DNA of 41,455 nt from IMG/VR virus record IMGVR_UViG_2585427970_000004; one strand, written 5' to 3'. This document shows, piece after piece, positions 1-40,087 of this stretch. The notes below the pieces were generated by a model. It worked only from the letters and a program-made list of their open reading frames with translations, was not told the origin of the DNA and did no database searches. Every line of letters begins with the position of its first letter. Position 1 is the stretch's first letter. The stretch is from a virus. Taxonomy: Duplodnaviria; Heunggongvirae; Uroviricota; Caudoviricetes. The position numbers were made by a program, and so were the translations under genes.

Positions 1-774
1 ATGGATATTACTGAGTTTCCTTCTGGAGTAATTGAACACCTTGGCTGGTATGTATACCGATTGATTGATCCTAGGGATGGAAGCACCTTCTATGTAGGGA
101 AAGGCAAAGGTAACCGCGTATTTGCCCATATGCGCGGTGAAGTGGCAGCGGCTGATGATGACGAGTTACTGAGCAACAAGCTAAAGCAAATCAGAGAAAT
201 AAGATTAGCGGGACTTGAAGTTATCCATGTCATCCATCGACATGGAATGACTGATGAAAAGACGGCGTACGAAGTTGAAGCAGCACTTATTGATGCCTAC
301 CCTGGGTTAACGAATATCATGAATGGTGCTGGCAGCAATGAATTCGGCGCCGCGCATGTCAAAGAGTTGATAGCAACATATCAACCCGAAACCATAACAT
401 TTCATCATAAAGCATTAATGATTTCCGTTAACAGAAGTGCAAAGGATTCAGAGCTTTATGATGCGGTTCGATTTAGCTGGCGCATTAATGTCTCTCGCGC
501 CAGCCAAGCAGAAGTCATTCTTGCTACTGTAAGGGGGATCGTTCGAGGGGTTTTCATTGCTGATAAATGGCTCAAATCAACACGTGAAAATTTCCCTACG
601 ATGAAATACTGGGACGAGGATCCGGACTTTGAGGCAACACAAAGTTCTCGCTATGGTTTTGAAGGTCGAGAAGCCCCACCTGAAATAGCAAATCTTTATC
701 TTGGAAAAAAAATACCAGATGAATTAAGAAAAAAAGGAGCTATGTCCCCGGTCCGTTACTCACCTAATTTTTGA
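1..774 (+). CDS. GIY-YIG-like nuclease domain protein, free-standing cargo gene at the prophage tail-fibre end
   Basis: ATG at 1; N-terminal motif [29 protein letters not shown] resembles the GIY...YIG/R core of UvrC/Slx1-type nucleases; C-terminal ~170 aa unassigned; convergent with the invertase pseudogene. Confidence 0.55.
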
Positions 775-1314
775 GTCTTTAAGTGATAAGCATAAACCGC
801 AGCACGATCTTCTTGCATACGACGTGCTACGGTTTTATTTATCTCCGACCGGAAACTTCTTATACAGTGTCGATATACCAACATCATAGATGATCGCCAC
901 CTTCTGGCGAGGAACGCCTGATGCAATTAATCGCCCGGCCTACGCCCATTGTTCTGGTGTAAGTTTGGGACGACGTCCACCAATTCGTCCCTGTGCGCGA
1001 GCAGCTTCCAGTCCAGCTTTTGTTCGTTCAACAATCAGTTCTCGTTCCATTTCAGCCAGGGCACCCATCACATGAAAGAAAAAGCGCCCCATTGGGGTAC
1101 TGGTATCAATTGAATCCGTCAGACTACGAAAGTTGATGCCTCGTTCGCGCAACTCCTCCACCAGCACGACAAGATGCCGCATACTGCGCCCCAGTCGGTC
1201 CAGTTTCCAGACAACCAGAGTGTCACCTGCCGATAATGTCCTGAGCAGTTTTTTCAGTCCCGGCCTTTCGGACTTTGTACCGCTTATCTTGTCTTCAAAA
1301 ATCAGCTCGCATCC

Positions 1315-1339
1315 TGAACCGCCCCGGGTTTCCTGGAGA
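1315..1339. repeat. IS terminal inverted repeat (left)
   Basis: tgaaccgccccgggtttcctggaga; matches the reverse complement of 2600..2624 with 2 mismatches. Confidence 0.8.
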
Positions 1340-1356
1340 GTGTTTTATCTGTGAAC

Positions 1357-2247
1357 TCAGGCTGCCAGATCATCGTTTCCGATGGAAGCATAATAAGCTT
1401 TTTCTGCTTCTGCCGGAGGAGTATGGCCCAGCCTTTCCAGCAATCGTCGATTGTTATACCAGTCCACCCACGTGAGTGTGGCCAGTTCCACTTCTGCACG
1501 GTTTTTCCAGCTCTTACGGTGTATTACCTCCGCTTTGTAAAGACCATTGATGCTCTCCGCCATCGCGTTGTCATACGAGTCGCCTGTACTTCCTGTTGAT
1601 GCCAGTAATCCGGCTTCCTTAAGCCGCTGTGTGTAGGCCAGCGATACATACTGAGAACCTTTATCACTGTGATGGACCGTGCCGGACGGTCGACGGGCCC
1701 ATAACGCCTGCTCCAGTGCATCCAGCACGAATGTCGTTTCCATGGACGATGAGACCCGCCACCCCACGATGTATCCGGCAAACACATCAATGATGAACGC
1801 CACATAGACGAAGCCCCGCCATGTGCTGACGTAAGTAAAATCAGCCACCCACAGCTGGTCAGGTCGTTCTGCCACGAACTGACGGTTTACGCGGTCGCCT
1901 GCGGCAACGGCTTTCCGGCTGATGGTCGTACGGACCTTTTTACCCCGGAGAACACCGGCAAGTCCCATAACCGCCATGAGACGTGCCACAGTGCATCTGG
2001 CCACTCTGATACCTTCCCGTAACAACTGACGCCAGACTTTACGCACACCGTATACCTTGTGATTTTCATCGTATACGCGCTGTATCTCTTTCTTCAGCCA
2101 GTCATCGCGCTGCGCACGGGCACTGCGTTTATCCGGATGATGTCGCTGTTGCTGACAGTGGTAATACGTTGACGGGGCAATATGTAGTTCACTGCATACC
2201 GGTCCGACCCCGTACAGCTTACGCAGCTTATCCAGCAGTGGCATCAC
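1357..2247 (-). CDS. IS3-family transposase OrfB (DDE integrase core), probably expressed as an OrfAB frameshift fusion
   Basis: 296-aa ORF with DDE-type core ([11 protein letters not shown]...HSDKGSQY...[15 protein letters not shown]); overlaps OrfA in the -1 frame at an AAAAAG stretch (2247..2252 on the minus strand). Confidence 0.9.
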
Positions 2248-2570
2248 TTTTTCCAGAGGCGGTCGAACTCCGCCTTCGCAAAATAAGCGGAAGCCTGGCG
2301 AAGGATATCGTTACTGCGGCGCAGTTCACGATTTTCACGTTCCAGCTCTTTCAGACGCTGACGTTCAGCGGTGGTGAGCCCTCCATCACCGCCCCCGGTA
2401 TCCCGCTCATGCTGGCGAACCCAGACACGCAGAGTCTCCGGCGTACAGCCAATCTTTGGAGCAATGGAACAAATTGTCGCCCATTGTGAGTCATATTCGC
2501 TCTGACTTTCCAGAACCATACGGACTGCCCGTTGACGGACTTCGGGGGAAAAACGAGTATTTTTAGTCAT
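2244..2570 (-). CDS. IS3-family transposase OrfA (HTH)
   Basis: 108-aa [53 protein letters not shown]...; leucine-zipper-like C-terminus; recalled as IS629/IS1203-type OrfA. Confidence 0.9.
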
Positions 2571-2599
2571 CCTGTTTACCTCTTTCTCAGGAAGTTTAG

Positions 2600-2624
2600 T
2601 CTCCAGGATTCCCGGGGCGGTTCA
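2600..2624. repeat. IS terminal inverted repeat (right)
   Basis: tctccaggattcccggggcggttca; reverse complement of the left inverted repeat. Confidence 0.8.
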
Positions 2625-37992: not shown

Positions 37993-38090
37993 ACATGAAA
38001 AGCAAAATCATCAGGGAGCTACAGGCTCCTTTTTTATTATTCGCATTTACCCTCAAGCGTATTAACCAACAATTCAGGGATTAATGAAAG

Positions 38091-38309
38091 ATGGCAGACA
38101 TCATTGATTCAGCATCAGAAATCGAAGAATTACAGCGCAATACAGCAATAAAAATGCGTCGTCTGAACTACCAGACTGTATCCGCAACTCATTGTTGTGA
38201 GTGTGGCGATCCGATAGATGAGCGAAGACGCCTGGCTGTTCAGGGTTGTCGGACTTGTGCAAGTTGCCAGGAGGAGATCGAACTTAAGAACAAACAATGG
38301 GGACTGTGA
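38091..38309 (+). CDS. TraR/DksA-family C4 zinc-finger protein
   Basis: 72 aa; CxxC…CxxC (CCECGDPIDERRRLAVQGCRTCASCQ) typical of phage TraR-like proteins. Confidence 0.7.
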   Translation: MADIIDSASEIEELQRNTAIKMRRLNYQTVSATHCCECGDPIDERRRLAVQGCRTCASCQEEIELKNKQWGL

Positions 38310-38635
38310 TGGCCTCAAAGCAGCAAATTTCAACATCGTCCAACTGGGGTGTAAAAATGTTCAGAATCATTTTTCCTAACACCTGGTACGTCGACCACCA
38401 CGGCACTCCCTGCAAAATCCTGCGTTCTACCCACAACAAAGTTCACTACATCCGAAAAGGCAGAACATGTATCGCCAGCATGTTCCGCTTTAATCATGAC
38501 TTTGAACCTGTGAATAAAGCTGATGCAGATCGGATAGCAGAAGAGATCGAAACGGCAGAACACATTAAGAAGTTACGTGACATGCGTTCAAAAAGCAGAG
38601 GTAACCATGGAATCATACAGCCTCACACTCGATGA
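38309..38635 (+). CDS. Hypothetical protein
   Basis: ATG 38309 overlaps the TraR-like stop (TGATG); track start is ATG 38297 in the same frame. Confidence 0.35.
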   Translation: MASKQQISTSSNWGVKMFRIIFPNTWYVDHHGTPCKILRSTHNKVHYIRKGRTCIASMFRFNHDFEPVNKADADRIAEEIETAEHIKKLRDMRSKSRGNHGIIQPHTR

Positions 38636-38957
38636 GGCCTGTCAGTTTCTTAAGATATCCAGACCAACCGCCACCAACTGGATACGAACAGGCCGCCTAC
38701 AGGCAACACGTAAAGATCCAACCAAGCCAAAATCTCCTTACCTCACAACACGGCAAGCCTGCATTGCGGCGCTTCAGTCTCCGCTGCATACTGTCCAGGT
38801 GAGCGCGGGTGATGGCATAACAGAGGAAAGAAAATGTCACTCTTCCGCAGAAGTGAAATATGGTACGCCAGTTTCACATTGCCGAACGGTAAAAGATTTA
38901 AACAGTCTCTTGGAACAAAGGACAAAAGGCAGGCGACAGAGCTCCATGACAAGCTAA
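38607..38957 (+). CDS. Excisionase-like HTH protein
   Basis: ATG 38607 with GAGGT RBS; [34 protein letters not shown]; immediately upstream of and overlapping int. Confidence 0.5.
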
Positions 38958-39997
38958 AGGCTGAAGCATGGCGGGTCAGCAAACTTGGTGAAATACCTGA
39001 TATAACGTTCGAGGAAGCGTGTGTCAGGTGGCTTGAAGAGAAAGCACATAAAAAATCACTGGACGATGACAAAAGCCGGATCGGATTCTGGCTTCAACAT
39101 TTCGCAGGAATGCAACTAAGAGACATTACTGAATCAAAAATTTATTCAGCAATGCAGAAAATGACGAACCGGCGTCATGAGGAAAACTGGAGACTCAGGG
39201 CAGAAGCATGCAGAAAAAAAGGGAAACCTGTTCCAGAATACACGCCAAAACCAGCGTCCGTTGCAACGAAGGCTACGCATCTTTCATTTATAAAGGCCCT
39301 ACTAAGAGCCGCAGAGCGTGAATGGAAAATGCTGGATAAGGCACCAATTATTAAAGTGCCTCAACCAAAGAATAAACGGATCCGCTGGCTGGAGCCCCAT
39401 GAAGCACAAAGGCTGATTGATGAATGTCCGGAGCCATTAAAGTCTGTTGTTGAATTTGCACTGGCAACAGGCTTAAGACGCTCGAACATCATCAACCTTG
39501 AATGGCAACAAATAGACATGCAGCGCCGGGTGGCATGGATAAACCCGGAAGAGAGTAAATCAAACCGCGCAATTGGCGTTGCGCTGAATGATACTGCATG
39601 TCGCGTTTTGAAAAAACAAATCGGGAATCATCACCGTTGGGTATTTGTGTACAAGGAAAGCTGTACCAAACCAGACGGAACGAAAGCGCCAACAGTAAGG
39701 AAGATGCGGTATGACGCAAACACAGCCTGGAAAGCGGCGCTGAGACGGGCTGGTATTGATGATTTCAGATTTCACGACTTGAGACACACCTGGGCAAGTT
39801 GGCTGGTTCAAGCCGGAGTCCCGTTGTCAGTGTTACAGGAAATGGGAGGCTGGGAGTCTATCGAAATGGTTCGTCGATATGCTCACCTTGCACCTAATCA
39901 CCTTACCGAACACGCACGGCAAATAGACTCGATCCTGAACCCATCGGTCCCAAATTCGTCCCAGTCAAAAAATAAGGAAGGTACTAATGATGTGTAA
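38834..39997 (+). CDS. int: Tyrosine integrase (tRNA-Thr site-specific, IntF-like)
   Basis: 387 aa; C-terminal catalytic motifs (…[42 protein letters not shown]…); ends 15 nt before the tRNA 3' end. Confidence 0.9.
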
Positions 39998-40011
39998 CTT
40001 ATTGATTTAAA

Positions 40012-40087
40012 TGGTGCCGATAATAGGAGTCGAACCTACGACCTTCGCATTACGAATGCGCTGCTCTACCAACTGAGCTATATCGGC
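40012..40087 (-). tRNA. thrW: tRNA-Thr (anticodon CGU), thrW-like; prophage integration target
   Basis: rc = GCCGATATAGCTCAGTTGGTAGAGCAGCGCATTCGTAATGCGAAGGTCGTAGGTTCGACTCCTATTATCGGCACCA; cloverleaf with anticodon loop TTCGTAA, TPsiC-loop TTCGACT, 3' CCA. Confidence 0.9.

Follow-up and report, generated by a model that had tools for sequence, protein, structure and literature searches.

Phage SfI (JX509734) is an isolated, contractile-tailed and serotype-converting phage of Shigella flexneri that has been described as a mosaic of SfV/e14, which accounts for its left half, and lambda, which accounts for its right half; its attachment core of 46 bp is the same in SfI, SfII, SfV, SfX and P22, and the 10-nt gap mapped experimentally in its virion DNA has the sequence TGCCCGCCCC (Sun et al., 2013; PMC3636060). 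Here we compare with these phages a stretch of 41,455 nt, IMG/VR virus record IMGVR_UViG_2585427970_000004, which as a whole we call the window and whose positions serve as coordinates throughout. We conclude with high confidence that positions 1-40057, the phage part of the window, hold the greater part of the genome of one temperate lambdoid phage, a member of the SfI/SfII/SfIV/SfV (e14-related) family that its own tyrosine integrase inserted at the 3' end of thrW beside proA. The element is a further member of an already described family, since it joins lambda and SfV/e14 architecture at thrW exactly as SfI does. As a prophage it is therefore routine, one more mosaic in a family described since 2002-2013, and what the analysis adds to its annotation is an int-side boundary fixed at 40057, the recognition that the element runs on past the window, an apparent locking of the fibre switch, and a list of the cargo.

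The integrase (Int) is 99.0% identical to that of SfI over its full length, the same 46-bp core lies in thrW beside proA, and the cos sequence is the same. Identity is 97.3% across 17.2 kb of structural genes and 96.8-98.4% in the lambda-like Red region and the P/ren blocks, and 23.7 kb of the window aligns with SfI, drawing on both types of module. SfI differs in having lambda's own cI/rexAB/cro/cII/N immunity, a phage-21-type Q and lysis region with two tRNAs, gtrA/gtrB/gtrI beside attP and no Pin switch, whereas in the window S24/YdaS/YdaT immunity goes without a detectable N, the cargo includes AbiL, DUF6414 and PD-T4-3, and there is a fibre switch of the Pin type. The resemblance to SfII, SfIV and SfV is equally close in Int (98.7-99.2%; 99.2% for SfII and SfIV, 98.7% for SfV) and in the structural module (97.1-97.6%), and the HNH gene and cos region match as well; however, the early regions of these phages are not lambda-like at the nucleotide level, the alignment with SfII covers only 19.7 kb of the window, and they carry gtr and oac genes instead of the defence cargo of the window.

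Two other groups of phages are close as well. The E. coli K-12 element e14, itself a remnant, and full-length e14-like phages such as vB_EcoM-689R6, which is integrated at icd, share the HK97-type head and the Mu-type tail genes (those with ymfQ and ymfR names), with 97.2% identity over 4449-22263, and they too carry a Pin invertase, with an invertible fibre segment that adjoins a cargo gene of the restriction type; they have another integrase, occupy icd and not thrW, and have another early region. Lambda and the lambda-like siphophages PhiR47_2, Perceval and 4A7 share the order of the early and lysis genes, and PhiR47_2 is approximately 96% identical over most of 22.7-38.6 kb, a stretch that takes in Q, the nin genes and the same S24/YdaS/YdaT immunity backbone. 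These phages differ in having non-contractile lambda-type tails and other integrases, and also in what fills the cargo slots behind cI and among the nin genes, namely GevT/GevA, ybcK and, in lambda, rexAB. Phage phi458 has an integrase identical to that of the window but is a lambda-tailed siphovirus overall, and was rejected as a close relative.

Gene calls were made with Pfam, PHROGs, PADLOC, Rfam, ARAGORN and annotated relatives. Read from the int side, the modules are int-xis, the lambda Red genes, a repressor region, O and P with an origin inside O, nin, Q, lysis, cos/HNH/terminase, an HK97-type head, a Mu-type contractile tail and a fibre host-range switch. This is the canonical lambdoid succession of int-xis, recombination, immunity, replication, nin, Q, lysis and late genes, as recognised from Pfam, PHROGs and annotated relatives, and from the integrase back to position 1 the phage genes form one unbroken genome in this order. 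The original prediction, made from the letters of the DNA, had placed a mosaic prophage at a tRNA-Thr beside proA, and the Sf-type Int, the published attachment core and the module content bear this out. All of the elements that it listed are present; the corrections are to the boundary, to the invertase, which is dead, and to the early region, which is only partly lambda's own. An Rfam scan of the window gave only the tRNA and the frameshift pseudoknot of an insertion sequence (IS) above threshold.

The int-proximal end of the element can be fixed to the nucleotide. In an ungapped comparison the window and the attP region of SfII are identical from inside int to 40057; beyond this point the window continues as the 5' part of the tRNA, whereas SfII continues into its other arm (TATAAGAATCC...). 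Identity with the second core copies of relatives stops at exactly the same position, and 40012-40057 is the reverse complement of the published 46-bp core ATTCGTAATGCGAAGGTCGTAGGTTCGACTCCTATTATCGGCACCA. The original prediction had been right that the integrase and the tRNA 3' end mark one attachment site, and right about the prophage itself, but had run the element on to 40087; the 30 nt of tRNA at 40058-40087 are host DNA, and thrW is a host gene reconstituted by the phage core. Outside the family, Int is closest to that of P22-like phages (approximately 90% identity), and the excisionase (Xis) is 96.6% identical to SfII Xis.

As tandem elements do occur at this tRNA, P4-type integrase islands among them, the mosaic could in principle be two neighbouring prophages at thrW, of which the one nearer to int would be lambda-like and the inner one SfV-like. 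Searches with a 37-mer, an 18-mer and a 23-mer of the tRNA 3' segment, each with 3 mismatches allowed, matched only 40012-40057 in the window, confirming the earlier statement that it holds no second copy of this segment, and the junction of the core with the P' arm, again with 3 mismatches allowed, occurs nowhere else in it. There is one integrase and no duplicated functional module; the lambda-like part is without head and tail genes and the SfV-like part without early genes, and it is an integrase of the SfV family that lies directly beside the lambda-like genes. The isolated phage SfI, moreover, shows the same arrangement in a single genome. We consider two tandem prophages highly improbable and have rejected this reading on module content, together with the independent recurrence of the joints described below. 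Tandem or replaced occupants are exemplified at the related locus L007, which has two core copies (3592-3638 and 14848-14895) and where a P22-like prophage with a tailspike head-binding domain and Arc/Mnt-like genes is inserted beside a remnant in which only PD-T4-3 and pin are left. In several relatives a P4-type integrase island lies in tandem beyond the second core.

The other end of the single prophage is not in the window. Both edges of the window fall at gene boundaries, position 1 being the ATG of the PD-T4-3 gene and position 41455 the start codon of proA, and this cut leaves the far end of the prophage missing. A second attachment site beyond position 1, as the original prediction had reasoned, is well supported by analogy with seven related loci rather than by this genome's own far end: in each of them the core recurs to the left of the PD-T4-3 gene, with an SfII-type P' arm (TATAAGAATCC...) directly after it. 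The distance from core to PD-T4-3 is 1.5 kb in L004 (8472-10000), 1.6 kb in L008 (8335-10000), 2.2 kb in L009 (7724-10000), 2.7 kb in L006 (7290-10000), 3.5 kb in L011 (5442-9000), 6.4 kb in L003 (3592-10000) and L007, and 7.8 kb in L001 (4955-12767), where it includes two IS elements. The intervening stretch is hypervariable and differs from locus to locus, holding DUF6650, FlxA, a 424-aa protein with a RelA/SpoT domain, a protein kinase, a BCCT transporter with DUF2254, or an S1 peptidase with BRO-N/ImmA. In the Shigella phages the matching slot is occupied by gtrABC. No gtr genes lie within the window, the gtr slot being beyond position 1. The missing end would accordingly add 1.5-8 kb of variable cargo between PD-T4-3 and the second att copy, occupying the slot of the serotype-conversion genes of the Shigella relatives, and as E. 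coli relatives hold other cargo there, the element may belong to the SfI/SfII/SfIV/SfV lineage without being serotype-converting.

Positions 4633-21912 align with SfII 1-17280 in one ungapped alignment of 17,280 nt at 97.6% identity, and each of the 22 proteins that SfII encodes between its small terminase and its gp48-like protein, these two included, is matched over its full length, 92-100% identical and with neither gaps nor stops. The HK97-type head that had been claimed is confirmed by the Pfam capsid, S78 protease, portal and terminase families, and the Pfam assignment of the head also takes in a gp6-like connector. The claim of a Mu/e14-like contractile tail holds equally: in addition to the sheath and tube, the Pfam families comprise DNA_circ_N/gp43, GpP/gp44, Gp45, GP46, Baseplate_J/gp47, Gp48, an E/41-type chaperone and DUF2635/Mup38. 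The intact sheath, tube and baseplate genes point to a virion with an isometric head and a contractile tail. The ends of the SfII genome map to 21912/21913, and the sequence that matches the SfI gap predicts a cos site between the HNH and small-terminase genes.

Long near-identical stretches shared by the lambdoid prophages of one genome can mislead assemblers, and the mosaic might thus be an assembly chimera joined at such repeats. At least 80% of the first 25 kb is found at one place in 172 complete E. coli genomes. A megablast search of 5,426 complete E. coli genomes gave a best identity of approximately 97%, so that no identical sequence is among them, as a chimera would lead one to expect, and none has a matching pin::IS structure near position 1. 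Among species-representative genomes an exact 48-mer taken from position 1 likewise had no match, and an 80-aa Pin fragment specific to this lineage is not on record. However, the joints on which a chimera would depend, from HNH/cos to bor-Rz and from orf61/TraR to xis-int, recur in the finished genomes of E. coli EC02 and NADC1036 and in SfI, and the gene order is fully canonical. A chimera is in our view the least probable reading of all, and on these grounds we reject it too in favour of a single integrated phage.

The fibre region contains a complete switch whose invertase is broken. Two inverted crossover sites of 20 nt, complementary at 19 of their 20 positions, enclose a segment with a silent fibre C-terminus and a silent assembly-protein gene on one strand and, on the other, the expressed C-terminus of the fibre and its assembly-protein gene. 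The N-terminal 108 aa of the fibre are a constant part held in common with SfII (92.6% identity to residues 1-108 by tblastn), and divergence starts at the 4633-4652 repeat. Inverting the segment in silico yields an in-frame alternative fibre of 213 aa. The invertase gene, pin, has been inactivated twice. An IS629/IS1203-type element has inserted after nt 78 (codon 26), with terminal inverted repeats of 25 nt and a 3-bp target duplication (TCC on the plus strand), and once the IS and one copy of the duplication are removed the two pin fragments are collinear with pinE of strain EC02, except that codon 150 is changed from CAG to TAG. The IS is 95.8-96.3% identical to annotated IS1203 copies and contains the ALIL frameshift pseudoknot of Rfam (2173-2289, 116 bits). 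The invertible fibres of the original prediction are thus structurally real, but their own invertase no longer serves them. The arrangement is that of the Mu G, P1 C and e14 P segments, which are inverted by Gin, Cin and Pin, respectively: an invertase gene lies beside inverted sites inside a fibre gene, and two C-termini, each with its own assembly protein, keep the reading frame. It differs from these in that the serine invertase of the window is split by an IS and carries a nonsense codon, which leaves no functional invertase gene. The fibre would be locked in its present orientation unless another invertase of the Pin/Gin type in the cell acted in trans.

The loss of pin raises the possibility that the element belongs to the same family but is defective, a cryptic prophage on the way to an e14-like remnant and unable to excise or to make infective particles. 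Relatives at the thrW locus bear several IS insertions and truncations, and, its far end being unseen, the element together with its cargo may come close to or surpass the 37-41.5 kb of isolated members. Against this, reading frames are full length for the 22 structural genes and for int, xis, O, P, Q, holin, R and Rz, with 92-100% identity to viable phages, and cos is intact. In the related systems of Mu, P1 and e14, moreover, a pin-type invertase serves to switch host range, and growth does not depend on it. We regard a defective prophage as unlikely, though as the most serious of the alternatives. The single temperate phage that we favour probably can still excise and form myovirus particles, as none of its essential genes shows visible damage. 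Some points nevertheless count against our interpretation. Including the 1.3-kb IS and three cargo cassettes, 40.06 kb of the element already lie in the window, and the genomes of SfI, SfII, SfIV and SfV measure 37.1-41.5 kb, so that a long missing segment could exceed the capacity of the head. In addition, no open reading frame (ORF) between the repressor gene and kil matches a family of the N antiterminator, although the local copy of Pfam may lack the newest N model. The relative at L010, which has the same backbone, also has no N on record; other backbones have N.

The early and lysis genes are lambdoid throughout, as had been predicted, but only in part are they lambda's own: near-identity to lambda at the nucleotide level is confined to three blocks totalling 5,527 nt (93.9-96.3%), and beyond these approximately 5.5 kb the immunity region, the holin, Q and most of the nin genes are lambdoid without being those of lambda. 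One of the blocks ends inside O. Five TTACCTGATTCGGGTAA-like iterons at 31125-31242, beside an AT-rich stretch (31093-31242), form the origin, and lambda identity ends exactly at 31125, the end of iteron 4 of lambda; because it stops at an iteron boundary, O is seen to combine a lambda-like C-terminal half with a non-lambda N-terminal half that has its own iterons. The kil gene is of the Rac type (PHROGs). Operator-like repeats with a shared motif, AATAGCAAT, lie on both sides of the repressor gene, at 32486-32545 (rightward) and 34944-35032 (leftward). The lysis cassette and the bor moron together occupy 22735-24352. All features are collected in Table 1.

Table 1. Features of the window, with their positions, strands and the basis of each assignment.
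Feature	Positions	Strand	Components or remarks	Basis
PD-T4-3/CMoRE, GIY-YIG type IV restriction endonuclease	1-774	+		PADLOC PD-T4-3, E 2.2e-140 over 1-256/256; Pfam LEM-3_GIY-YIG
pin invertase, C-terminal fragment	835-1314	-	premature TAG at 940-942	collinear with pinE of strain EC02
IS629/IS1203-type element of the IS3 family, 1310 bp	1315-2624	-	orfA 2244-2570; orfB 1357-2247	
pin invertase, N-terminal fragment	2625-2702	-	codons 1-26	collinear with pinE
Silent fibre C-terminus	2729-3121	+		Pfam Gp53-like_C
Invertible tail-fibre segment	2764-4652		crossover sites 2764-2783 and 4633-4652	
Silent assembly-protein gene	3143-3583	+		Pfam Caudo_TAP
Expressed assembly-protein gene	3555-4157	-		Pfam Caudo_TAP
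Tail fibre, current orientation	4157-4936	-	expressed C-terminus inside invertible segment	Pfam Collar
Mu-type baseplate	4940-9979	-	gp48-like 4940-5524; baseplate J/gp47 5515-6573; GP46 6560-6988; gp45 6985-7533; gp44/P 7533-8612; DNA-circularisation/gp43 8609-9979	Pfam; 97-99% aa identity to SfII
Contractile tail	9998-14250	-	tape measure 9998-11833; assembly chaperone 11975-12244; tube 12244-12600; sheath 12600-14096; DUF2635 14083-14250	Pfam; SfII matches
Neck genes	14259-16230	-	tail terminator; tail completion; head closure; head-tail connector; 66-aa protein	Pfam; PHROGs; SfII matches
HK97-type head	16280-19551	-	major capsid 16280-17485; S78 prohead protease 17500-18150; portal 18128-19369; YmfR-like 19369-19551	Pfam Phage_capsid, Peptidase_S78, Phage_portal; 99-100% aa identity to SfII
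Packaging genes	19563-22263	-	large terminase 19563-21296; small terminase (P27 family) 21293-21787; HNH endonuclease 21913-22263	Pfam
cos overhang (predicted)	21838-21847		between HNH and small terminase genes	motif occurs once in window
Lambda block, lambda 45500-46809	22735-24043		bor, Rz/Rz1, R	93.9% identity
bor/iss serum-resistance lipoprotein gene	within ORF 22741-23082	+	between cos/HNH and Rz; strand opposite to neighbours	Pfam Lambda_Bor
Rz with embedded Rz1	23114-23575	-		Pfam Phage_lysis
Endolysin R	23572-24048	-		PHROG endolysin
LydA-type holin	24035-24352	-		Pfam Phage_holin_3_3
Q and nin genes	24662-26752	-	late regulator Q 24662-25351 (PF06323-type); rusA 25485-25847; ybcO 25844-26173; ninE; NinB-like ybcN 26297-26752	Pfam; annotation of 97%-identical relatives
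AbiL-type pair	27135-29117	-	AbiLii/RloB 27135-27770; AbiLi AAA_21 ATPase 27777-29117	PADLOC AbiLi 1.8e-83, AbiLii 9.2e-21; Pfam RloB, AAA_21
Replication genes	29671-31678	-	ren 29671-29964; P 29961-30662; O 30659-31678	Pfam; lambda alignment
Lambda block, lambda 39119-40557	29687-31125		ren, P, C-terminal part of O	94.3% identity
Immunity region	31675-33275	-/+	YdaT-like in cII position 31675-32220 (-); YdaS/Cro-like 32245-32478 (-); operator repeats 32486-32545; S24 LexA-like repressor 32583-33275 (+)	Pfam; direct sequence reading
DUF6414 cassette, 35% GC	33321-34830	+	139-aa membrane protein 33321-33740; 58-aa single-transmembrane protein 33744-33920; DUF6414 protein 33928-34830	Pfam DUF6414, E 1.2e-18 over whole profile
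Early-left genes	35311-38635	+	kil 35311-35517; gam 35593-35889; bet 35895-36680; exo 36677-37357; orf60a/DUF1317; orf63/DUF1382; orf61; TraR-like 38091-38309; DUF4222 38297-38635	Pfam; PHROGs; lambda alignment
Lambda block, lambda 30418-33196	35508-38286		gam, bet, exo, orf60a, orf63, orf61	96.3% identity
Excisionase-like HTH gene	approx. 38607-38957	+		identity to SfII Xis
Tyrosine integrase, 387 aa	38834-39997	+	ends 14 nt from tRNA 3' end	
Int-proximal attachment junction	40011-40057		core common to phage and thrW 3' end	end of identity to SfII attP and to second core copies of relatives
tRNA-Thr (CGT), thrW	40012-40087	-	sole tRNA in window	ARAGORN; Rfam tRNA, 71.8 bits
proA, host gene outside element	40202-41455	-		Pfam Aldedh; annotation of identical stretch in strain NADC1036

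The cargo that a lysogen would express includes CMoRE, directed against T-even phages, the AbiL pair and Bor, and with these and the cassette in the rex slot the phage may pay its way in the lysogen. The product of the first gene of the window is near-identical to CMoRE of E. coli O157:H7 (PDB 9U75; E 1e-172, residues 1-257), a nuclease specific for DNA that contains hydroxymethylcytosine or its glucosylated form, hmC and glucosyl-hmC (PMC12923530), and on this similarity we predict the same PD-T4-3/CMoRE activity for this prophage gene beside the fibre switch. A PD-T4-3 protein of identical sequence is present in over 5,000 index blocks (a block being one or more contigs), in thousands of contigs beside the same tail genes, and is thus not diagnostic of a particular genome. 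It adjoins the fibre switch in SfV/e14-like prophages at several different chromosomal sites. The two AbiL genes are 6 nt apart on one strand, have 35% GC and lie in the nin region between ybcN and ren, a slot that in relatives holds other genes (ybcK, or a hypothetical gene of 1.4 kb).

The one lead of research value in the element is the DUF6414 cassette in the rex slot. Its three genes are placed between the repressor gene and a terminator at 34835-34856, which is followed by the leftward operator-like repeats, and this is the position of rexAB in lambda. The 139-aa protein has at least two strong hydrophobic segments and the 58-aa protein one, and the 299-aa DUF6414 protein has a predicted OB-fold. 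The two small proteins gave no match in Pfam, PADLOC or PHROGs, and searches by sequence with the cassette found no solved structure and nothing resembling RexA or RexB. A 2024 preprint identifies DUF6414 as DolA, one component of Dodola, in which it is paired with the ClpB-like DolB. The cassette matched no PADLOC model, that of Dodola included, at E <= 0.01, and we do not class it as Dodola because the ClpB-like partner is absent and the partners are instead the membrane protein and the single-transmembrane protein. We tentatively suggest, as a possibility to which we give rather less than even weight, that the cassette could be an undescribed phage-exclusion system expressed in the lysogen and working like Rex, in which a soluble part that senses nucleic acid triggers a membrane effector; such a system would be unrelated to Rex by sequence and distinct from Dodola. 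In relatives the rex slot holds a HipA kinase with DUF3037, or GevT/GevA, and a literature search for 'GevT' found nothing. In prophages of Klebsiella and Erwinia (L016-L022), too, the three genes of the cassette come after the repressor gene, and there they are combined with different repressors and backbones, with or without N.

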